Sequence record: MW822008.1
Origin: Escherichia phage BF17
Direction: 5' to 3' (one strand)
DNA: 64,000 nt
Under the pieces are notes generated by a model. It searched no databases and was not told the origin of the DNA. It was given only the letters and a program-made list of their open reading frames with translations. Of this stretch, positions 1 to 63,954 are shown piece by piece; the first letter of the stretch is position 1; the number at the start of each line of letters is the position of its first letter. The position numbers and the translations under genes are program-made.

Positions 1-364
1 AGTAGGCAGAGGAAGTCTGCCGTACTTTTTAGTTTCCAAGCTCCTTTTCCATTTTTCAAATTACATCAAATGTAATCAAAAGTAATCACGCAATGATTAG
101 TACTGAATTATTACTTTCACCTTAATTTCAATTACCCTTTTACCCGTCGGGGTAAAATTCAATTACCCCTTGAGGCTCCAGAAAAAAGTTGGTTAGTACT
201 CCATCCTAAATCTCGATCCTAAAAATTTTGGAGTACCTATGAAATAAAAGTTGGATCTTCGAAAGTTGAAATTTACGTTGGGACGTTTATGATTTGTGGG
301 ATATAATGATGTTTGTAGACGGGTAGTTCTCAAGAATATCAGTACTGAATAATGAAAGAAAGTT

Positions 365-17573: not shown

Positions 17574-17576
17574 GTA

Positions 17577-35749: not shown

Positions 35750-35770
35750 TTTTGTGATGGGATGATGCTA

Positions 35771-35941
35771 ATGAAAGAGTTATTTGAAGATCAGTTCAAT
35801 ACATATGTGGATAATATTCTTTATTCCAGTCGTGCCAGTCAACGAGGAAATCGTGCTTACAATATTGATTACCTATTGGTGGTGCTGAGTTCACAGTACA
35901 CCAATGCGGTACAAAGGGTTTATTATGAAAAGTGCAAGTAA
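35771..35941 (+). CDS. small hypothetical protein (56 aa), below ORF-track cutoff
   Basis: hand-translated MKELFEDQFNTYVDNILYSS...; fills gap in array. Confidence 0.35.
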   Translation: MKELFEDQFNTYVDNILYSSRASQRGNRAYNIDYLLVVLSSQYTNAVQRVYYEKCK

Positions 35942-36134
35942 TAGTGATATTGCAAAGGAGAAGTTTAAGTGCAGTTTAGATTACGGTTTAAATGATTTTC
36001 TTACATGCACAATGTACAGGGATGATGATTATGAACAATCCGTAATTTCGTTGCACAGATATTTAGAAATAATTTACGCAAGATATCTTAGAAGGTTAGA
36101 GGGAATAGGGGATTGGTATAATGATTACGTTTGA
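35925..36134 (+). CDS. hypothetical protein (about 69 aa)
   Basis: internal ATG of ORF 35904. Confidence 0.4.
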   Translation: MKSASNSDIAKEKFKCSLDYGLNDFLTCTMYRDDDYEQSVISLHRYLEIIYARYLRRLEGIGDWYNDYV

Positions 36135-36357
36135 AGAACCAGAAACAATGAGTCCATATACGATGAAAGGTTTTGAATTCATGATGGATTCGATTTTGAA
36201 GAGTTCGTGTTTAGTACACAATCCTGAGCGTGCAACAGTGAGGGAATATCAGGACAATGCATTACAGCGTGTAATGAATATGTACAGGAATACGAGTCGC
36301 AAGCTTTGTGCGTTGAAAAGGATTGAAGAAATCAAGGTTTCTAGGCTGAATAAATAG
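36121..36357 (+). CDS. hypothetical protein (78 aa)
   Basis: ORF track. Confidence 0.5.
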   Translation: MITFEEPETMSPYTMKGFEFMMDSILKSSCLVHNPERATVREYQDNALQRVMNMYRNTSRKLCALKRIEEIKVSRLNK

Positions 36358-36369
36358 AGACGTTTCATT

Positions 36370-36400
36370 TTGACAGGCCGCTGGAGGGGGTCAAAAAAAT
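36370..36400. repeat. GC-rich palindromic island TTGACAGGCCGCTGGAGGGGGTCAA in AT-rich array
   Basis: TTGAC / GTCAA arms flanking a 15-nt GC-rich core, followed by A-run. Confidence 0.45.
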
Positions 36401-36556
36401 TTCCGCTGAAAAACATGCTAAGGTATATGTTTAATATAAAGTTTTATATTGTGTTTTTTCAGAGTACAGTTCATGTTTCTTGAAACAAAAAATACCCCGC
36501 CGCCGAACGTTCTCCTTATATTGGAGTTTACCTTATTAATTATAGTAGAGATTAAG

Positions 36557-36934
36557 ATGGAAATAAAATATAATGAATTTTGTGCAAGGACATGGATGTA
36601 CACTGGTGAGTTAGTTACGCACTCTAACTTATACAAGGGTGATTTAAACTACGCTAGGGACAAGATTTTAAAGTACTGGAATGCTGACTTTTATTTGATG
36701 GATTTTAGTACTGGGTTTAGGGGTAAAGCAACCGAGATGTTGGACTATACAGTACTTGATGATTCTGCACTGTTTCAGGCGGCATTAGTATTTGATAAGA
36801 AGTACATCTGTACATTAGAAGAGATGATTGAATTACAGCGTAGAATTAAATGTATTCACAGGGAATGTATAGATATCTGGTGCAGTACTGGTGAAGATGA
36901 TTTTTGTAATCATTTCAATCTAGGGGAAGTGTGA
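36557..36934 (+). CDS. family B paralog (DSALFQAALVFD)
   Basis: internal ATG 36557 of ORF 36449; start uncertain. Confidence 0.55.
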   Translation: MEIKYNEFCARTWMYTGELVTHSNLYKGDLNYARDKILKYWNADFYLMDFSTGFRGKATEMLDYTVLDDSALFQAALVFDKKYICTLEEMIELQRRIKCIHRECIDIWCSTGEDDFCNHFNLGEV

Positions 36935-36936
36935 TG

Positions 36937-37095
36937 GAATTTGATTTTTTAATATCAGTACATTCTTTTAAGCACAGTTATCAGTACTTTTGTAATTTAA
37001 ACAAAGGTGATTTGATTATGGATACAGATACAGAGGCTGTATACAGTTCTAATATTCTGTACAAATTCAGTACTAATCTGAAGGAGATTTTATGA
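36937..37095 (+). pseudogene. duplicated 5' fragment of gene 37463 (truncated copy, 52 aa ORF)
   Basis: 36937-37030 nearly identical to 37463-37550 (ATGGAATTTGATTTTTTAATATCAGTACAT...). Confidence 0.55.
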
Positions 37096-37463
37096 AAAAA
37101 GAAATTAGAATTCAATTCGGTATGAGGAAAAGAGAGGTCATCTGTACACTGAATCATGCGGTCGTGGAAAGCCTTGGTGGTGCATTACAAAAATTCTCCC
37201 ATTTTGTTCTTGTACTATATGAAAATGGGTCTTTTAAAATCTTCACATATGATGATTCAAAAAATTACCGTAATGATTTTGTAAATCTGACAGTACTGTC
37301 AGAAGAGGAATTCTTTCAGGAAAGTACTGTCTGGAATTTACCAGGAGCACCAATTGAATACGTCCGTGCTACACAGGCAGAAATGATCAAAGTAATGCAG
37401 AACTATCCAGAAGATTATATGACTAAGTTTCCTGAATCTATTTATGTAGAGGTTGAGTACTGA
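37092..37463 (+). CDS. family B paralog (EEEFFQESTVWN)
   Basis: RBS AAGGAG. Confidence 0.65.
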   Translation: MKKEIRIQFGMRKREVICTLNHAVVESLGGALQKFSHFVLVLYENGSFKIFTYDDSKNYRNDFVNLTVLSEEEFFQESTVWNLPGAPIEYVRATQAEMIKVMQNYPEDYMTKFPESIYVEVEY

Positions 37464-37819
37464 TGGAATTTGATTTTTTAATATCAGTACATACTTTCAA
37501 GCACAGTTATCAGTACTTTTGTAATTTAAACAAAGGTGATTTAATGCACAGTGCAAATGAGTATATTCATTACACTCAGGGTAAATTTACATTCATTGAT
37601 TACAGTTCATTACAGTATCCACACCAAGATATGCCGGACTATACATTAATGGATACCGCAGAACTATTCCAAGAATCATTAGTATTTGATAAGAAGTACT
37701 TGTGTACATTTGAAGAAGTTATTGCAATACAAAATGAAATGAAAGAGTATGCTGCTTTGCATAAACCCAATGCAAGTATTAATCAAGAATACAAATTCAA
37801 TTTAGGAATTCAAGAATGA
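37463..37819 (+). CDS. family B paralog (TAELFQESLVFD)
   Basis: ORF track. Confidence 0.65.
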   Translation: MEFDFLISVHTFKHSYQYFCNLNKGDLMHSANEYIHYTQGKFTFIDYSSLQYPHQDMPDYTLMDTAELFQESLVFDKKYLCTFEEVIAIQNEMKEYAALHKPNASINQEYKFNLGIQE

Positions 37820-38175
37820 CATATGATTATTCTATGTACTATTATAAGTTACCTAAAGGATGGGACTTGTGCTGTAATCTTATTAAGGGCGACTCGGAAC
37901 ATGAGTTGAGTTTATATATGCATTACAAAGATTCTTGTTTTAAATTTATTCATGTATCACATGACGACTATGACTATGAATCTGAGAGTCTTATAGATTA
38001 TACAGTACTGGACGATGGTGAACTATTTCAGGCTGCATTAGTGTTTGATAAGAATAAGTACTCCTGTACATTTGAAGAAATGGTTTCTTTGCAAAATGAA
38101 ATGAAGAGATTTGAAAAAGAAAACGTATTTAATCCATCCCCATCAAGAACGAATAATTATTATTTCAATATATGA
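37816..38175 (+). CDS. family B paralog (DGELFQAALVFD)
   Basis: ATGA overlap. Confidence 0.65.
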   Translation: MTYDYSMYYYKLPKGWDLCCNLIKGDSEHELSLYMHYKDSCFKFIHVSHDDYDYESESLIDYTVLDDGELFQAALVFDKNKYSCTFEEMVSLQNEMKRFEKENVFNPSPSRTNNYYFNI

Positions 38176-38184
38176 GATTATAAA

Positions 38185-38676
38185 ATGACATTACAGAGTT
38201 CATTGGAAAAAGCAAAGAAGATTCATGAGTACATGAATATGGCAAAAGAAGGTTCAGTTTACGGTGTTTTCAAAGACACAAGTACTCAATATTATGTACC
38301 GGATAACCTCCTTTATAATGACTGCTCAGATACAGAAACGTGCGTACTGGATACAGAAACGTGCATACTAGATACCGACCCTAATGATTATGAATGCTTC
38401 ATTAATATGCATAATGAGTACATGGTCTATATTAATGATACAGATACCATCAACAGTACTGACAGCGATTCCAATGACATTATAATTCCGAGTGAAGTAC
38501 TGGAAGGTCCGTGGGATAGTGAAGAGTATTACTTCCAACAAAGTACTGTATATGATAATGAAGTACTTGATGTTATTATAATTATGTGGTACTTTAAAAG
38601 TATTGGTTCTGGGAACTTCTATTTCGATTACAAATACGTAAAGAAAACTGTAGATAACGGTATTAACAGGGGTTGA
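38185..38676 (+). CDS. family B2 paralog (SEEYYFQQSTVYD); contains 21-bp internal tandem repeat
   Basis: GATACAGAAACGTGC(G/A)TACT(G/A) x2 at about 38322-38363. Confidence 0.65.
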   Translation: MTLQSSLEKAKKIHEYMNMAKEGSVYGVFKDTSTQYYVPDNLLYNDCSDTETCVLDTETCILDTDPNDYECFINMHNEYMVYINDTDTINSTDSDSNDIIIPSEVLEGPWDSEEYYFQQSTVYDNEVLDVIIIMWYFKSIGSGNFYFDYKYVKKTVDNGINRG

Positions 38677-38677
38677 A

Positions 38678-39148
38678 ATGAGTTTAGAAAGAGCATTAGA
38701 GATTGCGAAGTTAATTGATTTATGCAGCAAAGAAATTGTAGCAAATTGTCTTAATGGATATCTATTCAAGGAAGGTAAATCATATTGTCGAATGAGATAC
38801 GATGACAGTAGTGAGTACATTCACATGTATGAAGAAAACTTAGATTCTTCTGAAACAACACTCAATGGGTGTGATGTTAATTTGGAAGATAATTACATGT
38901 ACTTCTGTCGTGATGCTGATATTTTAATACAAGATTCTGACATTATATCTGGTGCAGCAGAGAAACATCTTCCGTATTCAGTACTGGATAATGACTGGGG
39001 AAGTGAAGAGTACTACTTCCAGCAGAATACTATCTACGAGGAAGATGTACTTGACAAGCTTGTCATTCTGTGGTACTTTAATAATACAGATTGTCCTAGC
39101 TTCTATTTGGACTTGGATCTACTACGAGTTATTAAAGAGGATATATGA
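38678..39148 (+). CDS. family B2 paralog (SEEYYFQQNTIYE)
   Basis: N-terminus MSLERALEIAK. Confidence 0.65.
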   Translation: MSLERALEIAKLIDLCSKEIVANCLNGYLFKEGKSYCRMRYDDSSEYIHMYEENLDSSETTLNGCDVNLEDNYMYFCRDADILIQDSDIISGAAEKHLPYSVLDNDWGSEEYYFQQNTIYEEDVLDKLVILWYFNNTDCPSFYLDLDLLRVIKEDI

Positions 39149-39588
39149 GTTTAGCAAGTGCACTTGAACTAGCACACAGAATACATCACTTCCACGATAA
39201 CATAAAAAGTGGGTTCTATGGTGATAAAGTAAGTGCATTTGGTGATGAGTATTATCTATCAGGTATAAAGACATACTCTGATGATATTTTACTTATGGGA
39301 CAGGATAAAGACAATACTATACAGTACTCTTCATGTAGTCAATATACTAATTTTTTTGTATATATTCCAGGTACTAAGATTACTTTTGACACAACAAATA
39401 CACCTGTTGACTTCGGGGTACTTGATGGCCAGTGGGGTACTGAAGAGTATTACTTCCAACAGAGTCTCATTTTTAACCAAGAAATTCTTGATTCCTTGGT
39501 TGTGTTGTGGTACTTTAAGGAATTGAATTTTGAACCATTCTTTCTTGACTGGGGAGCATGTGAATATTTAAGTACAGGGGATTTGTAA
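39145..39588 (+). CDS. family B2 paralog (TEEYYFQQSLIFN)
   Basis: ATGA overlap. Confidence 0.65.
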   Translation: MSLASALELAHRIHHFHDNIKSGFYGDKVSAFGDEYYLSGIKTYSDDILLMGQDKDNTIQYSSCSQYTNFFVYIPGTKITFDTTNTPVDFGVLDGQWGTEEYYFQQSLIFNQEILDSLVVLWYFKELNFEPFFLDWGACEYLSTGDL

Positions 39589-40076
39589 TGTCATTACAAA
39601 GTGCATTGAAAGAAGCAAAGAAGATTCATGAGTACATGATTATGGTACAGGAAGGTTCAGTACCAGGTGTATATAAAACATCTGATACTGAATTTTTTGT
39701 AAAAGACCGTGACGATTATGACGAGTCCGAGATATGTGCAGAAACATTAGTACTGCACACTGATACTGGTGACAGTGATAACTGTGAATATCATATGTAC
39801 AATCAGTACATTAGTTATTGTCGTAATGAAGATATTACCATCTACAACACAGATAGTGATGCTGATGACACTATCATTCCTTATTCAGTACTGGAAGGAC
39901 CGTGGGATAGTGAAGAATATTACTTCCAGAATAGTACGTTGTACAATGAAGAAGAATTAGATGTTATTGTAATTATGTGGTATTTCAAAAGTATTGACTC
40001 CAGTAGTTTCTATTTTGATTATGAATATGTAGAGAATACTGTAGGAGAAGGTAATGTCATTACAAAGTGCTCTTGA
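39588..40076 (+). CDS. family B2 paralog (SEEYYFQNSTLYN)
   Basis: close paralog of 38185 gene. Confidence 0.65.
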   Translation: MSLQSALKEAKKIHEYMIMVQEGSVPGVYKTSDTEFFVKDRDDYDESEICAETLVLHTDTGDSDNCEYHMYNQYISYCRNEDITIYNTDSDADDTIIPYSVLEGPWDSEEYYFQNSTLYNEEELDVIVIMWYFKSIDSSSFYFDYEYVENTVGEGNVITKCS

Positions 40077-40506
40077 AAAAGCAAAAGAACTACATGGATA
40101 CTTTGACGATATAAAGGCAGGAAAGTTCAAAGAAGTGTACAAAGCCGAGAACGGCAACTACTACAAGGATGAAATGTATAATAACTCCGTTGGTGTAAGG
40201 GTTATTCTTGGGTTGAATTCCAATAGTCCTATATCGTTTTCTGAATACAATAGAGATGCAGAATTTATTAGTTATGTTGAAAATGGTAGCATTCGTTTTA
40301 TTAATCGCAAAAAACCATTAATTTTGAATTATGAAGTACTGGAAGGTCCGTGGGATAGTGAAGAGTATTACTTCCAAAACAGTACTGTTTACGATGATGA
40401 AGTACTTGAAGCATTAGTTATTATGTGGTACTTAAAGAGTGTTAACTGTCCTCGATTTTATTTGGATTTCGAAGAACTTCGTAAAGATCCAGAAGGTATA
40501 GAATGA
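40054..40506 (+). CDS. family B2 paralog (SEEYYFQNSTVYD)
   Basis: ORF track. Confidence 0.65.
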   Translation: MSLQSALEKAKELHGYFDDIKAGKFKEVYKAENGNYYKDEMYNNSVGVRVILGLNSNSPISFSEYNRDAEFISYVENGSIRFINRKKPLILNYEVLEGPWDSEEYYFQNSTVYDDEVLEALVIMWYLKSVNCPRFYLDFEELRKDPEGIE

Positions 40507-40817
40507 AAAACTTATTCAGTGTTCAGTACGTCCCTGGTGAAATTAGTTTATTGTATCTGTTTGATCATGATAATTCATTATTACTAGTAGTAAAGAAATG
40601 CCAAGCTAGTTCATTTGTTGAATACATTCACGATAGTGAATATATACCTGATTTTTTAGAGTGTGATTATTACGATGAACATGAATCATTTATTTTCCAG
40701 GAATCGCTCGTGTGGGATAAATCGATCAACTTCTTTACGTTAATTGAATTACAAAAGCAGGTGAAGTATCATTGGAATTACTTAATCACACAGGATTACA
40801 TTGAGATAGAAATATAA
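40503..40817 (+). CDS. family B paralog (ESFIFQESLVWD)
   Basis: ATGA overlap. Confidence 0.65.
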   Translation: MKNLFSVQYVPGEISLLYLFDHDNSLLLVVKKCQASSFVEYIHDSEYIPDFLECDYYDEHESFIFQESLVWDKSINFFTLIELQKQVKYHWNYLITQDYIEIEI

Positions 40818-41125
40818 TGACTAAAAATGAATTTGATTCACTTTGTACGGTTTATAATTCATTAACAGAAATACCTGACTTTATTAATTACATTTCAGCT
40901 TTAAATCAAATTATGCATAGTTTTGAACAATCGTTTGAAGAGAAATATGCTGGTAGAAAAGTTCTATGTCATATGTCAATGTACTTAGGAGATGGTGAGC
41001 CTTACACTACAAGTACTACATGTGAAATAAAAAAATATAATATATTATTGGGGACAATAGAATTCACAGTATCCAATGGTGGTAGTTATATGTACTTTAG
41101 AGATGGAGTGGTTGAATTATTATGA
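40817..41125 (+). CDS. hypothetical protein (102 aa)
   Basis: ORF track. Confidence 0.5.
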   Translation: MTKNEFDSLCTVYNSLTEIPDFINYISALNQIMHSFEQSFEEKYAGRKVLCHMSMYLGDGEPYTTSTTCEIKKYNILLGTIEFTVSNGGSYMYFRDGVVELL

Positions 41126-41571
41126 GTTACGAAAGTGCAATCAAGAAAGCAAATGATATTCTACGCGTCGTTAAATTCTTCAAAGAAAATCCTGAATACT
41201 TAGCTGATGAAAACCATGATCACGATGAGAGATTGAGACGAAAAATTGTCGCTTTATTTGACACTAATGCGGATAATTATAGTCTAATTGAGTTAGCATA
41301 CGATTATATTTCATTGAACCGAAACGGCAATATAGTTAATATAGAAAGACATGCAACTGAAGAATCTTTTAAAATTTCAGATATTTTATCCCTGAGTACT
41401 GAAGAAGGGTACTTCCAGGGTAGTACTGTTTATGAACAAGGGACACTTGACAATCTATGCACATTCAGTGTAATATATCAGAAATCTGTACTAGATGTAT
41501 TTTATCTTGACACTGCTGAACTGGATACACTAACCAATTTTGTTACTACTGAAGAGGCTACATTCGAGTGA
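41122..41571 (+). CDS. family B2-like paralog (TEEGYFQGSTVYE)
   Basis: ATGA overlap. Confidence 0.65.
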   Translation: MSYESAIKKANDILRVVKFFKENPEYLADENHDHDERLRRKIVALFDTNADNYSLIELAYDYISLNRNGNIVNIERHATEESFKISDILSLSTEEGYFQGSTVYEQGTLDNLCTFSVIYQKSVLDVFYLDTAELDTLTNFVTTEEATFE

Positions 41572-42104
41572 TGAAAGTTAACATCAATGACTTTGATGCA
41601 TTACAAGATTTATCAAAAAAGATTCGCACCATTGTACCAGTACTCAAAAAATGCAGTACTGGTTTAATCGATCCTAGTACTGTTGTTAATGAGAAGTACA
41701 ATTTTCATTATGTATTACAGGGTACTGGGGCATTCCAGAAGTGTGAGGTGCGTGAGACACACGTAATTGATACATCATTGTTTTCTATTGGTGCACCTGT
41801 GTCGAATAATACTATTTTCCTAGACAACGCTGGAAATATTCAACAATTAACATTTAAGAAAAGGAAAAAGAACAATAACATTGGTGTGTATGCGATGAAG
41901 TGGGGGCAACCTGATTTGAAGCGTGAAATTCACATCCCTAAGTACAATTACAATGCATTTGACGAACAGTGTTTTCAACTATCGTGTACTGACCCTGACT
42001 ATGCTATCATTCAGTTCTATATGGAATTGCAGATTGCATTTAACAGTAATTTGTATATTAACTTATTGGCGATGAACATCGATGAAGTATTCAAAAACAT
42101 TTAA
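41568..42104 (+). CDS. family B-like paralog (DEQCFQLSCTD)
   Basis: ATGA overlap. Confidence 0.55.
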   Translation: MMKVNINDFDALQDLSKKIRTIVPVLKKCSTGLIDPSTVVNEKYNFHYVLQGTGAFQKCEVRETHVIDTSLFSIGAPVSNNTIFLDNAGNIQQLTFKKRKKNNNIGVYAMKWGQPDLKREIHIPKYNYNAFDEQCFQLSCTDPDYAIIQFYMELQIAFNSNLYINLLAMNIDEVFKNI

Positions 42105-42300
42105 TCGAATTGAATACATGAGAACTGTGAGTGCAGTGTGGGACATATGGTTCACTACTAAACCAAAAATGGATTACCATGACTTTAAGCTCTTGTTCTT
42201 CGTTGGCTCTAACAAACAGGATGTTGCAATGAAGGGTTATATTCAGCACTTACAGGAACTAATCCAGAAGAGAATATATGAAAATAATAGACCAAAATGA
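42082..42300 (+). CDS. family A-like paralog (FVGSNKQD)
   Basis: ORF track. Confidence 0.55.
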   Translation: MKYSKTFNRIEYMRTVSAVWDIWFTTKPKMDYHDFKLLFFVGSNKQDVAMKGYIQHLQELIQKRIYENNRPK

Positions 42301-42469
42301 CATTGCTAAACTATTCAATATATATTCTACTAGAATGATGCAAACAGACTCATATAGTACTGAATTCAAAGAGTTGAAAGTACTGATGTACTTAGGAACC
42401 CAATACCAAGAACAAGTTATTTTAGAATATATTAATTCGTTGAAGAAGGATATCCGTTATGTACGATGA
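42278..42469 (+). CDS. family A-like paralog (YLGTQYQE)
   Basis: ORF track. Confidence 0.6.
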   Translation: MKIIDQNDIAKLFNIYSTRMMQTDSYSTEFKELKVLMYLGTQYQEQVILEYINSLKKDIRYVR

Positions 42470-43019
42470 TTTAGATCTTGCGTTTGAACGTATGGTAATT
42501 TTAATGCAATGTGCAGAAATGCATGAAACAATCCGTCGCACCAAAGGGATTGAATATACAAGTAAACTATTCTCATACGAAAGTCGTCGAGGGATGGATC
42601 ATTTTTACTGCACTGATTGTTCAAAGTTTTCAGTACTGAAATATTATCATCCTACTGTTTCCAATAATAGTTTAATATCCACATATGACGGTGTTCTGTT
42701 TAGTGTAATGTATGACACATTACATCCATCAATTTCAATCTATAAAGATTGCGATAGTAGTTTATCGTATATAATTGAAGATTACTTATCTCCTAATACT
42801 GAAGAGAATATTTTTCAGAACAGTGTGTTGCATGATGAATTAAGCATAAAATGCATCTATATGTTCAATAAGTTAAAAGAGTACGCCGATAATAATTACT
42901 TAATTGATAAGTTAGCAGTATTGTCTGTTTCCGTTTTTAATACAAATGACATTGATATGAAATACTATAATGAGATTTGTAAAGTACATCATATGTATAA
43001 GGAACTATTATGTCAATAA
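42459..43019 (+). CDS. family B paralog (EENIFQNSVLHD)
   Basis: ORF track. Confidence 0.6.
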   Translation: MYDDLDLAFERMVILMQCAEMHETIRRTKGIEYTSKLFSYESRRGMDHFYCTDCSKFSVLKYYHPTVSNNSLISTYDGVLFSVMYDTLHPSISIYKDCDSSLSYIIEDYLSPNTEENIFQNSVLHDELSIKCIYMFNKLKEYADNNYLIDKLAVLSVSVFNTNDIDMKYYNEICKVHHMYKELLCQ

Positions 43020-43612
43020 ATGCAAATAAATGTTGTAGTGCAGATGTGCATTTGTTTTTTAAGAAATTAGCAAATGATATTATATATATGCAGGAAATGA
43101 TTTATCACAAACGAGCGGATTTAGAAAAAGCATTAGTACAGTTCTCATTTATGCTTGATGGTGATATATTTCTAGAGAGTGATGCATTGCGAATAGTATT
43201 AGACAAAAATGCTAAAAGATTTTTATTTCATATAGATAATAAATTATGTTCCTCCGTATGTCGTACTTTTTATAATCGTGATTCGGACTTATATCAATTC
43301 CTTTATTCTAAAGGTGCAGTAGAAGCATCATATGGTGATGGTTATGCCCTAGGAAAGAGTATTCCATTTATGAAATCATTTAAAATAGAACACATCAGTA
43401 CTGATGAAGATGCAATGTTCACAAATGATATAACTATGGGACGTGAAGATGCAATGCGATATATTACAAATTCTATGCATACATTCTTTCAACGAACAGA
43501 ATTTGATAATGTATATATATCAAATGTAAATATTTTCAATGACCTGTGTCAGTACTTGAGAAGTGTTTGTGATTTTGATGAAAGCTATTGTAAGCTTTAT
43601 ACTGAGGTATAA
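43010..43612 (+). CDS. hypothetical protein (200 aa), weak family B resemblance
   Basis: ORF track. Confidence 0.55.
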   Translation: MSINANKCCSADVHLFFKKLANDIIYMQEMIYHKRADLEKALVQFSFMLDGDIFLESDALRIVLDKNAKRFLFHIDNKLCSSVCRTFYNRDSDLYQFLYSKGAVEASYGDGYALGKSIPFMKSFKIEHISTDEDAMFTNDITMGREDAMRYITNSMHTFFQRTEFDNVYISNVNIFNDLCQYLRSVCDFDESYCKLYTEV

Positions 43613-43617
43613 AACAA

Positions 43618-43980
43618 ATGAACACATTAAGTATTACATACTATACAACTAAAAAATTAGTTACTTGTTTAATATCATTGAAGACAAATCATGATGATAT
43701 GTTTGATATGGCTGCATATGAATTAGAATTATCAGAAGATGGCTTCAAGAGCTATGAAGTATATAGCTATGTTCGTGAAGATGTAATTGACACTACACTA
43801 ATGCAAGAGGATGAGTTATTCCAAGAAAGTTTAGTATGGGATAATAAGTACGATTGTAACTTTGATTTCTTATGTTTAATCCAGAAAGAAATGAAAAGAA
43901 TCTTTGATAATTATCCAGTGAAGAGATTGAGTACTGGACCGGAGCAGTACAGGAGAATTTTATTCCGTTATGAAGACTGA
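43618..43980 (+). CDS. family B paralog (EDELFQESLVWD)
   Basis: ORF track. Confidence 0.65.
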   Translation: MNTLSITYYTTKKLVTCLISLKTNHDDMFDMAAYELELSEDGFKSYEVYSYVREDVIDTTLMQEDELFQESLVWDNKYDCNFDFLCLIQKEMKRIFDNYPVKRLSTGPEQYRRILFRYED

Positions 43981-44305
43981 ATTAGTGAAAGTAATGTACG
44001 CTACTCATATTAAACTACTACTTGTGAAATTTGATTATAATAAAAAACATAATGATTTCTATACTTTAATTCGTGATGAAAATACATTCTCCTTGCGATG
44101 CAACAATATACCGTTGAAGATAAATGATTTTACTTCACTTGACGAGGGTGAATTATTTCAAGAATCATTAGTTTTTAATAGTAATATAAAAATTGATATA
44201 GAAGTTATTAAAAAATACCAGATTTTATTGAACAAAATTATGAATTGTTATCCATGTGAAATAGGTGGTCATATGCAGTTCAAATCAAAAATGTATGAAT
44301 TATGA
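43970..44305 (+). CDS. family B paralog (EGELFQESLVFN)
   Basis: ORF track. Confidence 0.65.
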   Translation: MKTELVKVMYATHIKLLLVKFDYNKKHNDFYTLIRDENTFSLRCNNIPLKINDFTSLDEGELFQESLVFNSNIKIDIEVIKKYQILLNKIMNCYPCEIGGHMQFKSKMYEL

Positions 44306-44312
44306 GGTTTAT

Positions 44313-44849
44313 ATGTTAGATGAAAAAATGAACAATGGAACACAATATAATCATCTTAAGTTAGATACATTCGAATCAGCTATCAGTACTGCACAAGATA
44401 TAATTGATATTATCAAGTTCATTAAAGAAAATAAGTTCAAATGTTTGAAAATACTAAATCGTTCAATGTACCGTGATAACAATATTCATGTATCAGTACG
44501 TAGACCGAAAGATAAAGAAAGTGGGAGAGATTTCTATAACAACAGTGAGCAGTTCGAATGTGAATATGATCCAGAATTCAGAGGCGGTTTCATGTGTTAC
44601 TGTATAAAGGATACCTCACACATTGAGATACGTTCATCGAAAGGTGGCATACGTACATTAGAGTTCATTGATATAGTTTTAAATCAGGAATACTACTTTC
44701 AACTATCATTGTTGTTTCCTGCATACGATTTAGGAGTTCTATTCATGTATAAGTACTTTTATGAGCACTGGAATGAAGACTTCTATCTGGACTTAGAAGA
44801 TTACCAATTAGTTTGGAAAGAAATGGTAGAACTTCGCAACCCATCTTGA
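44313..44849 (+). CDS. family B2-like paralog (NQEYYFQLSLLF)
   Basis: ATG 44313 with RBS GAGG 44304-44307; track start 44265 overlaps upstream gene. Confidence 0.6.
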   Translation: MLDEKMNNGTQYNHLKLDTFESAISTAQDIIDIIKFIKENKFKCLKILNRSMYRDNNIHVSVRRPKDKESGRDFYNNSEQFECEYDPEFRGGFMCYCIKDTSHIEIRSSKGGIRTLEFIDIVLNQEYYFQLSLLFPAYDLGVLFMYKYFYEHWNEDFYLDLEDYQLVWKEMVELRNPS

Positions 44850-44855
44850 CACCCT

Positions 44856-44909
44856 CCGATTCTTTGTGATATAATCTCTTTATATTAATTGTAAAGGGTT
44901 ATATCACAA
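44856..44909 (+). promoter_or_regulatory. Promoter with extended -10 (TGaTATAAT) inside inverted repeat TTGTGATATAA...TTATATCACAA
   Basis: TTGACA 44856-44861, TATAAT 44880-44885; 11-bp arms; GATTCTT(T)GTGATATAAT motif recurs at 57905. Confidence 0.55.
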
Positions 44910-45385
44910 TGTCCAAAGACCTATCATTTAGCAATGCACAAAAAATAGCAAAAGACATTATCAGGGTTTATAAATTCCTTGCGAATGTTACTGAAGATTT
45001 TTTCGTGGGGGAACATAAAGTTATTAAACGAAATGGATACCTTTCCTTTATGGATGGGTTACTCTATAGTTCAGATGAATCAACTTGTAGCATTAGAGTA
45101 CTTGATGAAGTACCAAGTGGTGATTTTATTTCATACCATTTTCCAAGTTCAGATAATTTCAAATACTACAATCATCTTCTTATAAATGAAGCATTTGATA
45201 CGATTGTAATTAACACTGAAGAAGAGTTCTTCCAGTACAGTACTGTGTATCCAGAGAGGATTGTTTTCAGTTCAGTGATTTACACTGCCCTTAAAAATGA
45301 ACTAAATTCCGATAGTGATCATTACTACTTGGACCTGAACAATGTCGATTGTATTATTGAGTACATGGAGAAAAATGGTTTATGA
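44909..45385 (+). CDS. family B2-like paralog (EEEFFQYSTVYP)
   Basis: ORF track. Confidence 0.65.
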   Translation: MSKDLSFSNAQKIAKDIIRVYKFLANVTEDFFVGEHKVIKRNGYLSFMDGLLYSSDESTCSIRVLDEVPSGDFISYHFPSSDNFKYYNHLLINEAFDTIVINTEEEFFQYSTVYPERIVFSSVIYTALKNELNSDSDHYYLDLNNVDCIIEYMEKNGL

Positions 45386-45876
45386 TTACTACAGAATATG
45401 ATTACTATGGTGTTTTAGAATTTACAGAAAATATCTATCGCATTGCAAAGGAGTTCAGAAGTCCTAAGCCTTTTGGTGGTATGTTTCAATACGATGAGTT
45501 CAGTTCATCTAAAGGAAGACTAGCATTTACTAATGTTAGAGGTAATCAAATCTACGCGGAGTACTTTGATGATAATGACTTTCATTACAAAGCCGAATAC
45601 ATTTCATATTGCCCTGGGTCTGATTTGAAGATTAATATTGATACCTTTAGAGATTCAGTGCTTGTCCCTTATAGTGAGTTAGTTTTCATGACAGAAGAAA
45701 TGTACTTTCAAGAGTCTTGTATTCATGATGTAAAAGTACTTAATGCTATGTTATTTTATGGTGCACTACTTCATCATTACAAATACAAACAACGATTCTT
45801 TTTAGATTTAGTAGTATACTATAAATGCGTGGATTATTTGAATGCAAAATACGACAACAATTCAGTACATGACTGA
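45382..45876 (+). CDS. family B paralog (EEMYFQESCIHD)
   Basis: ATGA overlap. Confidence 0.65.
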   Translation: MITTEYDYYGVLEFTENIYRIAKEFRSPKPFGGMFQYDEFSSSKGRLAFTNVRGNQIYAEYFDDNDFHYKAEYISYCPGSDLKINIDTFRDSVLVPYSELVFMTEEMYFQESCIHDVKVLNAMLFYGALLHHYKYKQRFFLDLVVYYKCVDYLNAKYDNNSVHD

Positions 45877-46204
45877 TGGTACTGAATACTTTGTTTCAAG
45901 ATATGTAATCAACCACAACCATTATGTAACCTATATTCCAGAGTACAATCAATTTTATATCCAGATTTATCAAAATAATGGAAAGATAAATGATATATAT
46001 TCAGAAATAAAAATCCCTGATTATAGTACTTTATCAGAAGAGGAATTATTTCAGGAGAGCACTATCAGTACTGAAGATGTGTACGAAATAATGGAATACC
46101 AGAAGGTACTTAAACATTTTCATGAAGCAAATGATATACAAATCGATATTGTTAAACCGTGGTGTTACAATACATATGAGGTAAATTATGTTAGAAATGA
46201 TTAA
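45842..46204 (+). CDS. family B paralog (EEELFQESTIS)
   Basis: ORF track; true start may be ATG 45869. Confidence 0.6.
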   Translation: MQNTTTIQYMTDGTEYFVSRYVINHNHYVTYIPEYNQFYIQIYQNNGKINDIYSEIKIPDYSTLSEEELFQESTISTEDVYEIMEYQKVLKHFHEANDIQIDIVKPWCYNTYEVNYVRND

Positions 46205-58742: not shown

Positions 58743-59597
58743 ATGAAACTTTATCTAATCGTTGACTACAATAAGGATTATGCTGGTAACTTCACCGAAG
58801 ATTCGGATGGATATTGCACATCGACTAATGTCAATGTACGTAGCAGTAGTGCTCATGAACATGAATCTTGTAAAAATCTAAAAGATTTTATCGCATACCG
58901 AGCATTTGAAAAGAACTTCTGCCGCAGTAGATATTCGAAGTTTGAGTACCCGTTAATTGATGTTCCTGATGATTTAATGTTCCAGTTAATGCTAACTGGA
59001 GTTCAAGATTATGATTACATAGCATATAATCATATTACTAAGAAAATTTATATTGGTACATCATCACATGACACTTCTATGTATGCATCATGCCCAGATG
59101 ATCGAATGAATGATAGAAAATCATACTATAGTGGATCAGTTGGTTTAAATGATTCATTAAATGAAAATTTATTCTTTGAGTATGTTTATGATTACCATCA
59201 TGAGAAAAAAGAACGTGAAGATTACTGTATAGCAATTGATAGTACTAATGGGTATGAAGACGTGAAAGAAGCACTTATGCCGTACATTATTGAAAAGTAC
59301 TACAAAGATTTTCAGTACTGTAGTAATTTTCTAATCAGAAATTCTATTATAATCGGTCGCCAATCTAGTGCATACTCTCAGTACTATAATGATTCACCAG
59401 TAGCATCGGCAAATGAAATGTGTGATATTTTACAAATTCCACGTGAAGATATGGCATTCATTTTTACATCTTTTATTGAAGATGATGAGTTGTATATTAA
59501 AAATAAACACCGTTTCATGCCAAGCAAGATTGAGGTTATTCGAAGTTTTAGTGTTGATATACTAACAAATTTCACAGAAAAAACCGAATATAACTGA
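58743..59597 (+). CDS. hypothetical protein (284 aa)
   Basis: ATG 58743 with RBS GGAG; track start 58710 lies in terminator. Confidence 0.7.
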   Translation: MKLYLIVDYNKDYAGNFTEDSDGYCTSTNVNVRSSSAHEHESCKNLKDFIAYRAFEKNFCRSRYSKFEYPLIDVPDDLMFQLMLTGVQDYDYIAYNHITKKIYIGTSSHDTSMYASCPDDRMNDRKSYYSGSVGLNDSLNENLFFEYVYDYHHEKKEREDYCIAIDSTNGYEDVKEALMPYIIEKYYKDFQYCSNFLIRNSIIIGRQSSAYSQYYNDSPVASANEMCDILQIPREDMAFIFTSFIEDDELYIKNKHRFMPSKIEVIRSFSVDILTNFTEKTEYN

Positions 59598-59625
59598 GAC
59601 AAATGATAAGTTAATGATATAATAT

Positions 59626-59661
59626 AAGGTGACAACATAATATGTTAGTCACCTTTTTTTA
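59626..59661 (+). terminator. Rho-independent terminator
   Basis: hairpin AGGTGACaacataatatgttAGTCACCT then TTTTTTT. Confidence 0.75.
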
Positions 59662-60200
59662 ATCCTGAAAGGTTCCCATAAGGAAATGATTAAAAGCCTA
59701 ATCCACTCGAAAATGTAGAGGGTAGATGAGTAGTCCTTTCAGTACGAACAGCAGATGAAACCCGTTAGATGATGGCATAGTTTGAACCACTCACGGCAAT
59801 GCGGCTGTATAAAGAACTCCAATAGGATAAAGAGAGTTCCTCGATAGACATATAAGGATCGCACCTTACCAATTATCTAAGGGAGATTTCATAAGAAATA
59901 TGCGGTCGGAATTATACAATATAGTTGCGTCCAAATTTTGTGAAATCAAATACAAGTACTGGTCATATGGTATTTGTATTATGTGTCGGGATGTTTAAGA
60001 CCGACGACCGTTGCTACAAGAACCGCGATAGAGAGAAACAGAGCAACCCGCTTTCGTCTCGTAAGAGAATTCGTGATATGAACTATGTGAAGGCCACCAG
60101 CGTCAAACTTTTTTGTTCTTTCCCCTGCGGGGGGGATGAAATATGCTCAAGCAAACCCCGTCAATATTAATTAAAAGAAAATAGTACTTGTAGAATTAGA
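59662..60200. other. ORF-poor, relatively GC-rich intergenic region; candidate structured RNA or replication/recombination site
   Basis: no ORF with RBS; long-range complementary segments (GACGACCGTTGC / GCAACCCGCTTTCGTC); CCACCAGC 60094-60101; CCCCTGCGGGGGGG hairpin. Confidence 0.35.
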
Positions 60201-60279
60201 CATGCGTAGCATGGTAATTCTACTGATGTTGATGAAATCAACGTCACGTATATTCATTGATGTTTCCATAGGAATAATG

Positions 60280-60822
60280 ATGGCATTTATTAGAAAAGAA
60301 AAAACTGTTACTTATAAAACTTTGAATTTTGATGATTGCATTAATCAATCACAAGACGAAGATATCTTTACTGGATATGTGGTTATTAAAGAAAAAGGAT
60401 GCATTTCTTATATAAAGGAATTGCAAAATGGAATTGAAGTGACTTCAGTTAAATTACTTCCTACTCAAAAACCAACAATATCAAAAGCCCAGTATGGTAA
60501 TTATTTTGAAGAAAGATATAGTAATAATTCAATAAGTGTTAAGGCTCATATTATTAAAGGAGAACTAGAAGGAGAATATAGAAAATACAACCCACAAGGA
60601 AAATGTGTTTGGGTTAAATACTTCAATTCAGGATATGATGTAACATCTGAAATTATAGAGTTCTTAGGTTTAAAATGTACCCCTGAGACTATTCACGATT
60701 ATAAGTTCAATACTGAAGAAGAGTTTAATCTGATGATGCGTTACGGTTCACATTTTAAATTTTTATATGAATATAACATTGACAGTAGTACTTTTGATAA
60801 GATAGTACACAACTGTCTCTAA
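60280..60822 (+). CDS. hypothetical protein (about 180 aa)
   Basis: ATG 60280 (or 60277) with RBS AGGA; track start 60202 lacks RBS. Confidence 0.6.
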   Translation: MAFIRKEKTVTYKTLNFDDCINQSQDEDIFTGYVVIKEKGCISYIKELQNGIEVTSVKLLPTQKPTISKAQYGNYFEERYSNNSISVKAHIIKGELEGEYRKYNPQGKCVWVKYFNSGYDVTSEIIEFLGLKCTPETIHDYKFNTEEEFNLMMRYGSHFKFLYEYNIDSSTFDKIVHNCL

Positions 60823-60838: not shown

Positions 60839-61360
60839 ATGTCGAAGAAGGATGCTTCGAAAAAACATTCAGTACATTTTAGTACTGGAAAAGATAACTG
60901 GACAACTCCAAAGGATTTCTTTGAAGATTTGGATGAACTCTGGGAATTTACACTAGATGCAGCATGTGTCAAAGAAACTGCATTGTGTGATAATTTTTTC
61001 ACTCCAGAAGATGATTCACTGTCACAGGATTGGGGAAATAATATAGTTTGGTTGAATCCACCATATAGTGACTTGAAAACTTGGTTATCTAAAGCAGTAG
61101 ATGCATATAATAACGGGGCAACTGTAGTTATTCTTGTACCCTCAAGAACCGATACAATTGCTTTTCAGGATTATGCTGCTAAAATATGTGATTGTATTTG
61201 TTTTATTAAGGGAAGATTGAGATTTGGTATACCAGAAGAACCCGATAAGAAAACAGATTCAGCACCATTTCCTTCGTGTCTGATAGTACTGGATAAGTAC
61301 TTAACCACTGCTAAAATCAATTATCTTAAATCTCTTGGGTTGGTGATGAAGAATTTATGA
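60839..61360 (+). CDS. phage Dam-family DNA N6-adenine methyltransferase (173 aa)
   Basis: WTTPKDFF...LDAAC...WLNPPYS: NPPY catalytic motif plus overall pattern of the small phage Dam family; RBS AAAGGAA. Confidence 0.75.
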   Translation: MSKKDASKKHSVHFSTGKDNWTTPKDFFEDLDELWEFTLDAACVKETALCDNFFTPEDDSLSQDWGNNIVWLNPPYSDLKTWLSKAVDAYNNGATVVILVPSRTDTIAFQDYAAKICDCICFIKGRLRFGIPEEPDKKTDSAPFPSCLIVLDKYLTTAKINYLKSLGLVMKNL

Positions 61361-61890
61361 AAGAAACATGCGTATTAACTTTTGGACGTGTTAATCCCGT
61401 ACATCGTGGACATGGTTTAGTTTTTGAAAAGGCCAAAACATTACAAGAACAGTACAATGCTGATTTAAAAATATATCTAAGCACCAGTACTGACAATATA
61501 AAAAACCCACTCCCACCTGAACTAAAAATGTATTATACAGAGGGATTCTATCCTTCAGTGCAAGAGAACATCTACACAGAAGACAATCTATTTGATATAA
61601 TGAGAGAACTGGATGGAAAGTACTTAGATGTTCTTTTCATATGTGGTTCTGACCGTATTGATTCTTTTCAAAAAACTCTTGACATGTACAATGGTAAGTT
61701 GTATAATTTTTGTAGTATAAAAGCAATTCAAGCAGGTATTGACCGTAATGTAAGTCAATATAGCTCAACACAAATGCGTAACTTCGCAAAAAATGAAGAT
61801 TTTGATAGTTTTCGTGAGTTTTTACCTGGAAATGACGAGGACTTAAAAATACAATTATTTGAAGACGTTATAAAATACATGAGGAAATAA
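61357..61890 (+). CDS. nucleotidyltransferase with HxGH motif, NMN adenylyltransferase-like (177 aa)
   Basis: N-terminal TFGRVNPVHRGH matches the G(R/K)FxPxHxGH signature of NadM/NadR-type adenylyltransferases; ATGA overlap with methyltransferase gene. Confidence 0.55.
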   Translation: MKETCVLTFGRVNPVHRGHGLVFEKAKTLQEQYNADLKIYLSTSTDNIKNPLPPELKMYYTEGFYPSVQENIYTEDNLFDIMRELDGKYLDVLFICGSDRIDSFQKTLDMYNGKLYNFCSIKAIQAGIDRNVSQYSSTQMRNFAKNEDFDSFREFLPGNDEDLKIQLFEDVIKYMRK

Positions 61891-61892: not shown

Positions 61893-62186
61893 ATGTCAGT
61901 ACTGTTCAAAACCAATCCAGTACTTTGGGATCAAAATGAGCAATCAGGATTTCGTTCCATCCATGTTGAATACAAAGGTAATACTGTAGTTGCAATTATT
62001 GCTAACAAAACTCTAGGAAACTGGACTGCACAGGTTGTTCCTATGGGATATTCTTACACATCTGATGAGGTTCAATTCCTGGCTGAACTATATCGTCAAG
62101 TGCCGTTTATCATTAATGTACTAGAAGGTAATGATACATTATCACATGCAGATGTGATTAATTTTCTTGGAAACTTGCATGTGTGA
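61893..62186 (+). CDS. hypothetical protein (97 aa)
   Basis: RBS GAGGAAA. Confidence 0.7.
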   Translation: MSVLFKTNPVLWDQNEQSGFRSIHVEYKGNTVVAIIANKTLGNWTAQVVPMGYSYTSDEVQFLAELYRQVPFIINVLEGNDTLSHADVINFLGNLHV

Positions 62187-62466
62187 TGAAATAAATCTTA
62201 CAGGATATTTTTTACAAGAATCAATGATTAAATTTAGTGATAAATTTTCAGTACTGGATGGTATCGAAATGTGGCATGTCAAACCACTGTTCCACACTTT
62301 CAGTAAAGAGCACAAAATGTTATTGACTGAAGCCAGTAAATCAAATAACATATGTGAAATCAAAATTGGTGTAAATGTCTATAAAGGGATGGTTATCTTT
62401 TTTGACAATAACAGCAACTACTTTTATATTGTTAAGGAGCATTACGTTGACAAATACAAATACTAA
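62179..62466 (+). CDS. hypothetical protein (95 aa)
   Basis: ATG 62179; track start 62167 is TTG. Confidence 0.6.
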   Translation: MCDEINLTGYFLQESMIKFSDKFSVLDGIEMWHVKPLFHTFSKEHKMLLTEASKSNNICEIKIGVNVYKGMVIFFDNNSNYFYIVKEHYVDKYKY

Positions 62467-63067
62467 TACATATTTCCGTTATCTTCGATTAGGTCTTTCC
62501 CTACGTCCGATCCGTGGAAAGTGCGATTCACTCGCTGACCTTGACTATGCATATGCATTACATCATGAAGGTGTACAGTATGTATTGGGTGATTATGGTG
62601 AATTTGAAGAAACAAATGACAGTACTGGAATTAATGCTGGTGTAGAAAATCTTAACAACATTGCTAACAGTTCTCGCCATGACATTGTGTTACAGATTCA
62701 AAACTTTATTGAGCAACACACAGGCAAACGTGTTTGGTGCTATGTCGGTACTGATGCACAAATGTCAATTTCATTCGGTAACGATGAAGGATATGTTGCA
62801 CAGCTTATTATGGATTTTGAATCTGAAGAGAAGTTTTTAGAATTCAAAGAAAAGATTATTCAGTCACTTGTTGATATGGGTATCCCCGAAGATAAAATGC
62901 CAGAAGTTCAAAACATTGATGAATTTGTTTTGATTCCATCTGATGAGAAATATGATGCAATGTTTACTGCTCTTAATATTCCAGGAGTTATTGTGGAGTA
63001 CTTTGATGATGGTGATGATAGTATCTATATCGATCTAGATGACGATGACGATGACGACGATGAATAA
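62447..63067 (+). CDS. hypothetical acidic protein with poly-Asp C-terminal tail
   Basis: TTG 62447 preceded by RBS AAGGAG 62434-62439 (start uncertain; track gives 62375); C-terminus DLDDDDDDDDE. Confidence 0.5.
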   Translation: MTNTNTNTYFRYLRLGLSLRPIRGKCDSLADLDYAYALHHEGVQYVLGDYGEFEETNDSTGINAGVENLNNIANSSRHDIVLQIQNFIEQHTGKRVWCYVGTDAQMSISFGNDEGYVAQLIMDFESEEKFLEFKEKIIQSLVDMGIPEDKMPEVQNIDEFVLIPSDEKYDAMFTALNIPGVIVEYFDDGDDSIYIDLDDDDDDDDE

Positions 63068-63073
63068 TGTACA

Positions 63074-63102
63074 TAGCCCGACATAAGTTCGGGCTATTTT
63101 TG
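63074..63102 (+). terminator. Rho-independent terminator
   Basis: hairpin AGCCCGAcataagtTCGGGCT then ATTTTTG. Confidence 0.75.
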
Positions 63103-63113: not shown

Positions 63114-63389
63114 ATGAATTATAAAGTTCTACAATATACATACAGTGTTTTGTTTGATTTACATCACAATGGAAGATATCTCAATACAATACGAGAAAAC
63201 ACATTCACTCATACTATCTGGATTAATCACTTAATAATGATACGTGAATATTTTGTTAATAGTGAGATAATCATTCGTGGTAAAAAACAGAAGATAGAAC
63301 AAGTTAATAGTTTTGGTGGTAAATTAGTACTATCATTTATAGATAGTAATACTAATGAAAGATATAGTATAGATTTGGTGGACATATGA
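63114..63389 (+). CDS. family C paralog (MNYKVLQYTYSVLFDL...)
   Basis: RBS AAGGGGA; N-terminal motif shared with following genes. Confidence 0.65.
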   Translation: MNYKVLQYTYSVLFDLHHNGRYLNTIRENTFTHTIWINHLIMIREYFVNSEIIIRGKKQKIEQVNSFGGKLVLSFIDSNTNERYSIDLVDI

Positions 63390-63652
63390 ATTATAAAGAT
63401 TTCCTACTAACATACAAGATTATTCGAGATTTAGCACACGACAATGATAGCCCTAGTCTAGAAGACACATGCACTGAAATGATTCATACGATTCGTGGTA
63501 AGATTAAAAAAAAATTCAGTACTGTTATTATTGGTGATGACCATGCAGAATTTTCTGATATAATCATTAGACGTGATGGTAAAGTTGAGGTTCAGTACTA
63601 CACTGATTTTGGATTTACCAGTATTCCGTTGGAGATATTCCCTTGGGATTAA
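63386..63652 (+). CDS. family C paralog (MNYKDFLLTYKIIRDL...)
   Basis: ATGA overlap. Confidence 0.65.
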   Translation: MNYKDFLLTYKIIRDLAHDNDSPSLEDTCTEMIHTIRGKIKKKFSTVIIGDDHAEFSDIIIRRDGKVEVQYYTDFGFTSIPLEIFPWD

Positions 63653-63954
63653 ATTTAAATGATATACAATTCACTTATAAGATCCTATATGATTTGTATG
63701 ATGTATACCTTGTTAGTAACAACATAGGTTCACATAACCGATCCAAAGAACAACCATTTATTGATTTATATATTGAGTACTTAGATTCAGTAGGTGAATA
63801 TATAAAAAAGAATTACAGTACTTTTATCGATGGAAATGATAAATTCGATTTCTATGGTGTACAATCATATAATGGTATAATCCATGTTCAATTTCAGGAA
63901 ATAACCGATAGGGGATTTATCGAGATTAAAGTTGTGAAGTTGGTGAATTTATAA
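63643..63954 (+). CDS. family C paralog (LNDIQFTYKILYDL...)
   Basis: ORF track. Confidence 0.6.
   Translation: MGLNLNDIQFTYKILYDLYDVYLVSNNIGSHNRSKEQPFIDLYIEYLDSVGEYIKKNYSTFIDGNDKFDFYGVQSYNGIIHVQFQEITDRGFIEIKVVKLVNL

Follow-up and report, generated by a model that had tools for sequence, protein, structure and literature searches.

The 64,000-nt stretch of DNA from Escherichia phage BF17 (MW822008.1) analysed here, which we call the window, contains an open reading frame (ORF) for a 177-aa protein that is very likely an ATP-dependent adenylyltransferase from a clade of the HIGH superfamily that is specific to phages. As for the molecule receiving the adenylyl group, our best single guess, and a tentative one, is a pyridine mononucleotide, i.e., nicotinamide mononucleotide (NMN) or nicotinic acid mononucleotide (NaMN). 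A first-pass annotation had reported this ORF, which is present in the ORF list and can be read directly from the sequence (Table 1), as an NMN adenylyltransferase (NMNAT)-like protein with a possible function in NAD+ salvage or counter-defence. Part of this assignment stands, since the protein is a HIGH nucleotidyltransferase, adenylyltransferases are its nearest characterised enzymes and its N-terminal half can be aligned with a phage NadM domain, but it misses the curated cut-offs, and its membership of the NMNAT families is not supported.

The protein is probably catalytically intact and active, because it has every residue that ATP binding and catalysis are expected to require. The (H/T)xGH ATP-binding motif is contained in the N-terminal segment GRVNPVHRGH; translated in all six frames, the window has no other match to G[RK]xxPxHxGH, and 300 shuffles gave none. 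Among 55 family members R11, G18 and H19 are invariant, and the consensus of the segment is GR(F/M)NP(P/V)(H/T)xGH. The first-pass annotation had recognised here the NadM/NadR signature G(R/K)FxPxHxGH; the looser pattern fits, but a V is found where the strict one has F. The invariant Arg that follows the first Gly represents the NadM/NadR form G(R/K)F, in line with the R11 mutants of Mth NMNAT. A second signature, SSTQMR, was absent from the earlier account and aligns with ISSTMIR of NadD and with ISSSIVR of phosphopantetheine adenylyltransferase (PPAT, CoaD). Two more conserved elements lie between these signatures. The KNPL...K57 motif has a common form with KNPF...ER of NadM and a looser likeness to KKPMF...ER of PPAT, while the GSDR...YNG...YNF segment, for which the alignments with NadD and PPAT showed no equivalent, is presumed to form the second-substrate site. 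Other residues invariant or nearly so in the family are F9, S42, D46, K49-N-P-L52, L108, Y111-N-G113, G127, R130, F152 and P157.

Given the alignment of the 55 family sequences, AlphaFold returns a five-stranded Rossmann-like core followed by a C-terminal helical part (predicted local distance difference test, pLDDT, 93.8; predicted template modelling score, pTM, 0.87). A Rossmann-like fold, an N-terminal (H/T)xGH and a C-terminal SxTxxR together characterise the adenylyltransferase branch of the HIGH superfamily, and the protein is securely placed in this branch, not specifically among the cytidylyltransferases. Structure prediction, one of the checks proposed in the first-pass annotation, has therefore given a confident fold of the adenylyltransferase branch, but the best matches among solved structures are PPATs and not NMNATs: Foldseek lists PPAT first (E 1.7e-6, template modelling (TM) score 0.64–0.67) and then NadD and human NMNAT (1–2e-5). 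When the family profile was compared with PDB sequences, S. aureus NadD 2h29 (1.4e-6) and H. pylori PPAT (7.5e-6) were both matched over their full length, archaeal NMNAT (NadM; 1.8e-4) over the N-terminal 60 residues only, and glycerol-3-phosphate cytidylyltransferase (GCT) at 0.34; entries 1m8f, 1m8g and 1m8j are also among the profile matches. Searched as a single sequence, the window protein has no match among PDB sequences.

Matches to curated models are weak throughout. Over the 55 members, the NCBIfam models recovered are those for NadD (43 members), NadR-type NMNAT (29), archaeal NMNAT (25) and PPAT (11). The window protein scores 17.1 bits against Pfam CTP_transf_like (cut-off 21), 17.1 against FAD_syn (cut-off 27) and 19.8 against the NadD model TIGR00482 (cut-off 112.45). 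Neither TIGR01526 nor PRK01153 is among its matches at E up to 1, and other family members match these two models weakly (at best 3.2e-5 and 8.7e-4, respectively). Overall, the protein is about equally distant from NMNAT, NaMN adenylyltransferase (NaMNAT) and PPAT, and clearly farther from the cytidylyltransferases.

The comparison with individual enzymes gives the same mixed picture. With the NadM NMN adenylyltransferases (1F9A/1EJ2; NadM-Nudix 2QJT; CBB_113 of the related jumbo phage CBB) the sequence alignments cover about 60 N-terminal residues; in the CBB_113 alignment GRFxxxHxGH and KNPF..ER are paired with GRMNPPTxGH and KNPL..K, whereas the central GSDR/YNG segment differs and the window protein has neither a fused Nudix domain nor a Nampt neighbour. 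With S. aureus NadD (2H29) it has in common a GxD after strand 4 and an aromatic residue aligned to the NadD Trp, but Arg11 replaces the Gly/Thr of NadD.

Relatives of the protein are numerous. The region is 100% identical in Escherichia phages SP27 and SHEFM2K and 98–99% identical in three jumbo myoviruses of ~350 kb, PBECO4 (genus Asteriusvirus), 121Q and phAPEC6. Across its relatives the transferase is kept at 59–99% identity, with all residues of the catalytic motifs invariant. It matches PHROG 3041, "cytidyltransferase", over residues 2–176 (E 9.6e-58) and is thus a direct member of this family, the phage "cytitidyltransferase" family (PHROG 3041/395; for example S-PM2 Q5GQJ8, P-HM2 E3ST13, Serratia phage BF A0A1S6UAX7, PBECO4 gp147), whose predicted structures superpose on the window protein with TM-scores of 0.86–0.91 and which has the same invariant residues. 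An exhaustive HMMER search yields 2702 relatives at E<=1e-3, and 559 phage records are matched by tblastn, 458 of them labelled Synechococcus, Prochlorococcus or "Cyanophage" and the remainder chiefly Rak2-like and PA5oct-like jumbo phages; Cassandra (Wroclawvirus, the same genus as PA5oct) carries a member. Almost all of the T4-like cyanophage records searched contain the family, which is also common in jumbo phages. The Asteriusvirus protein is a minimal, stand-alone domain with HxGH, whereas the cyanophage members are mostly longer, mostly have TxGH and usually occur as tandem pairs adjoining a DUF6267 gene.

The gene, its motifs, fold, family, distribution and contexts, and the absence of partner genes are observed here, whereas adenylyl transfer, the acceptor and the physiological role are inferred. 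ATP would be bound by R11 and K57 together with the (H/T)xGH loop and the SxTxxR helix. Its AMP moiety would pass to the phosphate group of a small phosphorylated molecule, bound in turn by the invariant elements KNPL, GSDR and YNG, with release of pyrophosphate. The product would be NAD+ from NMN, or nicotinic acid adenine dinucleotide (NaAD) from NaMN. This kind of acceptor was chosen because NadD, NadR and NadM dominate the weak hidden Markov model matches, because Arg11 and KNPL are NadM-like, and also because the phage keeps Sir2, three Nudix, macro-domain and WGR-domain genes, whose products consume NAD+ or handle ADP-ribose. Circumstantial support comes from the related jumbo phage PA5oct, which most strongly induces the host pncA-pncB1-nadE operon (PMC7318152), i.e., the Preiss-Handler route lacking only the NadD step. 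In the infected cell, the transferase may strengthen the host's own salvage at the adenylyltransferase (NadD/NadR) step or, alternatively, re-use the NMN released by NAD+-consuming reactions.

Partner genes for such a reaction were sought in the whole-genome annotation of PBECO4 and by tblastn of CBB_115 (Nampt) and CBB_113 (NadM-Nudix) on PBECO4, SHEFM2K 1–50000 and the window. Both proteins are absent (best E 5.8 and 9.1), which confirms the earlier remark that the window holds no Nudix- or Nampt-type partner; the first-pass annotation had also advised a search of the rest of the genome, and the 98% identical PBECO4 has no Nampt, NadM-Nudix, PnuC or nicotinamide riboside (NR) kinase, with neither PnuC nor a NadR-like/NR-kinase gene annotated anywhere in its genome. 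The "membrane protein" gp465 of PBECO4, the only larger one annotated, was inspected as a PnuC candidate and rejected, its sequence being unlike that of a multi-pass transporter. In CBB (PMC5259590) the genes for NadM-Nudix CBB_113, Nampt CBB_115 and Sir2 CBB_120 lie together (KU574722 54982–61119). The syntenic site of PBECO4 (NC_027364 65840–67140) contains Sir2 gp095, which the CBB protein detects in Asteriusvirus by tblastn (2.7e-64), and an overlapping stand-alone Nudix hydrolase, gp094; elsewhere PBECO4 carries macro-domain gp028, Nudix gp032 and gp542, and WGR-domain gp086. Sister jumbo phages have kept NadM-Nudix and Nampt genes close to Sir2, and Asteriusvirus has lost them.

The NAD+ reconstitution pathways known from phages are NARP1, NARP2 (Nampt plus a bifunctional NMNAT/Nudix) and NARP3 (PnuC plus a NadR-like NMNAT/NR kinase). 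NARP2 and NARP3 contain a HIGH-type NMN adenylyltransferase as well, such systems are described in the literature, and NARP2-type pairs occur in sister Rak2-like jumbo phages. The NMNAT resemblance of the transferase is all that would link it to a system of this kind. NARP2 needs Nampt and a Nudix-fused NMNAT, and NARP3 needs PnuC and a kinase-fused NMNAT, whereas here we find a single 177-aa domain of a different clade from the NMNATs of both pathways. None of the known pathways is present, because no Nampt, NadM-Nudix, PnuC or NadR-like gene was found, and the site that retains Sir2 has lost the other two genes. An autonomous reconstitution system acting in counter-defence is therefore contradicted by the gene content and most improbable. 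Nor do the present observations lend direct support to counter-defence in general. Without an NMN-forming enzyme, the transferase alone cannot rebuild NAD+ from ADP-ribose and nicotinamide.

Several observations weigh against NMN or NaMN as the acceptor even in the more modest role preferred here. None of the curated NMNAT/NaMNAT models is reached by the window protein, and nothing in the region aligned to 2h29 corresponds to the SYTxDT loop by which NadD binds NaMN. In hhalign comparisons with single enzymes, only E. coli CoaD is aligned over the full length (E 9.8e-5, 146 columns), whereas the phage NadM domain CBB_113 (4.6e-4, 58 columns) and E. coli NadR (5e-4, 26 columns) are aligned at the N-terminus only, and E. 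coli NadD over 19 columns only (0.02). The top 23 Foldseek matches among solved structures are all PPATs. At position 16 of the (H/T)xGH motif, T is found in 47 of the 55 members, as in PPAT, and H in the remaining 8, which are limited to a jumbo-phage subclade; the His of HRGH, taken in the first-pass annotation as a NadM/NadR mark, is a subclade trait. Moreover, Yersinia phage fHe-Yen9-04, Xanthomonas phage XaC1 and Serratia phage BF carry a transferase homologue together with NadM-Nudix and Nampt at another locus, and Klebsiella phage K64-1 carries a homologue together with NadM-Nudix. The presence of the transferase beside bona fide NadM-Nudix and Nampt speaks against a plain NMNAT function; it could still be a second NMNAT of very divergent sequence, and a non-redundant role is at least as likely. 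The conserved partner of the family elsewhere is the ligase-like DUF6267 and not an NAD gene, and our literature search found no enzymology for any family member.

A PPAT-like enzyme would convert ATP and 4'-phosphopantetheine to dephospho-coenzyme A (dephospho-CoA), so that more CoA would be available during infection, a reading which we regard as rather improbable. In its favour are the Foldseek ranking, the alignment with the whole of E. coli CoaD, the profile match to the H. pylori enzyme, a similar length and the prevalence of TxGH; in addition, K49 is aligned with K42 and N112 with N106 of PPAT. On the other hand, the PPAT model TIGR01510 is matched weakly and by 11 of the 55 members only, the TM-score is only ~0.65, and PPAT has GTFDP, devoid of the Arg, and RGLRxxxDFEYE where the family has Arg11, NP and GSDR. 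To our knowledge, there is no precedent for a phage gene of the CoA pathway. Still less probable is a cytidylyltransferase that uses CTP and resembles the glycerol-3-phosphate or phosphosugar enzymes, which would supply CDP- or NDP-precursors for surface or DNA modification. The name given to the gene in the records and the weak CTP_transf_like match would suggest it, but this name derives from the Pfam domain label. The C-terminal SxTxxR is of the adenylyltransferase form and not RTxGISTT, the cytidylyltransferase signature, and enzymes of the GCT type are not the closest matches of the protein. No sugar or glycosyltransferase genes adjoin the transferase gene. Iyer et al. suggested NDP-sugar synthesis for HIGH nucleotidyltransferases encoded close to sugar clusters of cyanophages (PMC7824862), proteins that may or may not belong to the transferase family.

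An acceptor of another kind, connected with the chemistry of nucleic-acid ends or with an early takeover of the host, is one that we consider possible, if on balance unlikely. The transferase would then be a neofunctionalised adenylyltransferase working with the ligase-like DUF6267, often as a domain of large multidomain proteins that are polyvalent-like and possibly delivered with the virion; its acceptor could be a nucleic-acid 5' end, a signalling nucleotide or an NMN-type cap donor, and in Asteriusvirus the DUF6267 partner would have been lost and the transferase would sit in a methyltransferase cassette. In the T4-like cyanophage S-RIM8 (L013 2854–4909) the DUF6267 (PF19782) gene immediately precedes a 385-aa protein containing the transferase domain, which is followed by a 572-aa "cytidyltransferase". 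In three unrelated metagenomic T4-like contigs (L019, L020 and L021) DUF6267 is adjacent to the transferase or two genes away, near genes for UvsX, a gp41-type helicase and RNase H. The two genes lie within ~250 nt in six of the seven cyanophage records that appear for both families among the matches listed, and are 245 nt apart in the seventh, S-RIM12 (KX349327). DUF6267 occurs in 471 phage records, and its distribution among cyanophages is nearly equal to that of the transferase family (371/61/24 versus 375/61/22 records). The two domains are fused in the metagenomic proteins P0101, P0145 and P0127, and other homologues combine the transferase with Pol-beta-like nucleotidyltransferase (NTase), Hint, DUF5824, LysM, AAA and SET domains; 82 of the 150 best representatives exceed 400 aa. 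The family protein has also been found in purified cyanophage virions, its function being stated as unclear (PMC9146016, PMC10665884). The coexistence with a true NMNAT in sister phages and the invariant GSDR, YNG and R130, which lie outside the ATP site and are specific to the family, point in the same direction.

Against this stand the nature of the partner and the situation in Asteriusvirus. The motif order of DUF6267 (KxDG ... QGD ... EGxV ... KxVDR) is the one usual in ligases, capping enzymes and other covalent nucleotidyltransferases, but it is the sole basis for calling the domain ligase-like: no significant match was obtained among PDB sequences, and hhalign against the phage's own DNA ligase and RnlA gave non-significant values (E 0.68 and 0.12). 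There is no DUF6267 in the Asteriusvirus genome. PBECO4 gp110 (399 aa, beside the DNA ligase) was tested as a hidden copy and is not one. The transferase is not marked as virion-associated in the phAPEC6 virion study or in the annotation of PBECO4, and it is not mentioned in the polyvalent-protein paper, the phAPEC6 virion paper or the PA5oct omics paper (PMC7318152). A literature search on DUF6267/PF19782 found no paper. Furthermore, we know of no member of the HIGH adenylyltransferase branch that acts on macromolecular acceptors. It also appears improbable that the family as a whole is a distinct adenylyltransferase which co-operates with DUF6267 instead of serving cofactor salvage; in one version of this idea, it would regenerate or supply an adenylylated cofactor for end-joining or for RNA/DNA end modification at the start of infection. 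As a separate observation, a query with gp30-type ATP-dependent DNA ligase reached 2357 phage records, with Synechococcus phages outside the ten commonest organism names, and the T4-like cyanophages examined seem to lack this ligase. In view of this tally and of its ligase-like motifs, DUF6267 could take the place of the missing ligase in cyanophages.

The gene is already annotated and its family is known (PHROG 3041/395). The records of its relatives name it "cytidyltransferase" or "putative cytitidyltransferase", or leave it as hypothetical. An NMNAT-like reading is likewise present in public annotations and in the literature: the JGI annotation labels several family members as nicotinic acid/nicotinamide mononucleotide adenylyltransferase, and a cyanophage paper terms the family protein an NMNAT homologue (PMC10665884). 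The spelling "cytitidyltransferase" is an error that has spread over hundreds of cyanophage records, and a literature search on this name found no paper. Two public records are wrong in another way, the 121Q record KM507819, in which gene 418 is called "ribonucleotide reductase A", and the BFVD entry H8ZNG8; "NrdB ribonucleotide reductase A subunit" is attached to a family member.

The features of the locus are collected in Table 1. The transferase is preceded by a Dam-type methyltransferase gene, and the ATG of the former (61357–61359) overlaps the TGA of the latter (61358–61360) in an ATGA. The translational coupling claimed in the first-pass annotation is therefore real; it is also unremarkable, as 22 of the 53 adjacent gene pairs in the corresponding co-directional block of PBECO4 (98% identical) overlap, six of them by 4 nt. 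The order PHROG 16210 gene–Dam methyltransferase–transferase–PHROG 14956 gene is common to PBECO4 (Asteriusvirus), K64-1 (Alcyoneusvirus) and fHe-Yen9-04 (Eneladusvirus), the two flanking genes being equated across phages by size and position only, and was not seen in the PA5oct-like phage Cassandra or in the cyanophages examined. Because overlaps are the norm in the block and only three related genera of jumbo phages show the pairing, we dismissed the coupling to the methyltransferase as weak functional evidence. Directly upstream of the cassette, an unusually long interval of ~600 bp (59598–60201) is devoid of a convincing plus-strand gene; the annotation of SHEFM2K shows only tiny opposite-strand ORFs there, and promoter-like sites with an extended -10 are found at 59594–59623.

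Table 1. Coordinates of the transferase gene, its motifs and surrounding features in the window
Feature	Position	Strand	Remarks
Upstream conserved gene	60202..60822	+	PHROG 16210 (3.2e-94); first gene beyond the ~600-bp gap
Dam-type DNA N6-adenine methyltransferase	60839..61360	+	173 aa; Pfam PF05869 (2.3e-31), PHROG 111
Transferase ORF	61357..61890	+	177 aa, ATG start; PHROG 3041, HIGH-superfamily nucleotidyltransferase
G10-R-V-N-P-V-H16-R-G-H19	61384..61413	+	(H/T)xGH ATP-binding motif with family-invariant Arg11; read from sequence
K49-N-P-L ... K57	61501..61527	+	N50 and K57 invariant; aligned to CBB_113 NadM domain and E. coli CoaD
G97-S-D-R100 ... Y111-N-G ... Y116-N-F118	61645..61710	+	family-specific; G97, S98, D99, R100 and N112 invariant
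Perfect sigma-70 consensus TTGACA-17-TATAAT	61679..61707	+	12/12 match; inside the transferase ORF
S136-S-T-Q-M-R141	61762..61779	+	SxTxxR phosphate-binding signature (NMNAT/NaMNAT/PPAT branch); S136 and R141 invariant
Downstream conserved gene	61893..62186	+	97 aa; PHROG 14956 (1.8e-47); starts 2 nt past the transferase stop
Terminator-like hairpin and T-run	63073..63097	+	9-bp stem, 5 GC pairs; consensus scan only

The sigma-70 site within the transferase ORF overlies the codons for the conserved LDxYNGKLYN, is kept in PBECO4 and K64-1 and is weaker in fHe-Yen9-04; it may act as an internal promoter for the downstream genes. It is one of 12 perfect sites (TTGACA-16..18-TATAAT) in the window, all on the plus strand, where 0.19 are expected. 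The others are at 366, 3807, 10830, 11410, 13145, 14115, 14455, 14724, 15155, 17577 and 44846, and seven of the ten at 366–17604 have TAGTACTGTATAAT in common; the sites with this element look like the strong early promoters of the phage. The terminator-like hairpin, directly 3' of a 230-aa ORF with an acidic poly-Asp tail (62375–63067), may end the transcription unit of the cassette. Beyond it, three consecutive ORFs of 91, 88 and 103 aa (63114–63954) resemble each other at the N-terminus (MNYK..L.Y.Y.IL.DL...) and are apparently tandem paralogues; in SHEFM2K, PHROG 21004 is annotated twice in succession close by. Long tandem arrays of paralogous small genes also occupy ~36050–46200 (SHEFM2K 35389–45527), with five consecutive copies of PHROG 9317 and repeated PHROGs 15629, 13866 and 12674.

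For the window itself the import of these results is small, as the gene was already annotated and confers no autonomous pathway for rebuilding NAD+. The label "NMN adenylyltransferase" has the standing of a reasonable guess and not of a finding. The interest lies at the level of the family, which is widespread in cyanophages and jumbo phages, occurs in virions, bears a misleading public name and lies exactly between the adenylyltransferases that make NAD and those that make CoA. The identity of its acceptor would correct hundreds of annotations and would show whether stand-alone NMNAT-like genes are to be counted as NAD+ counter-defence or as auxiliary metabolic genes.

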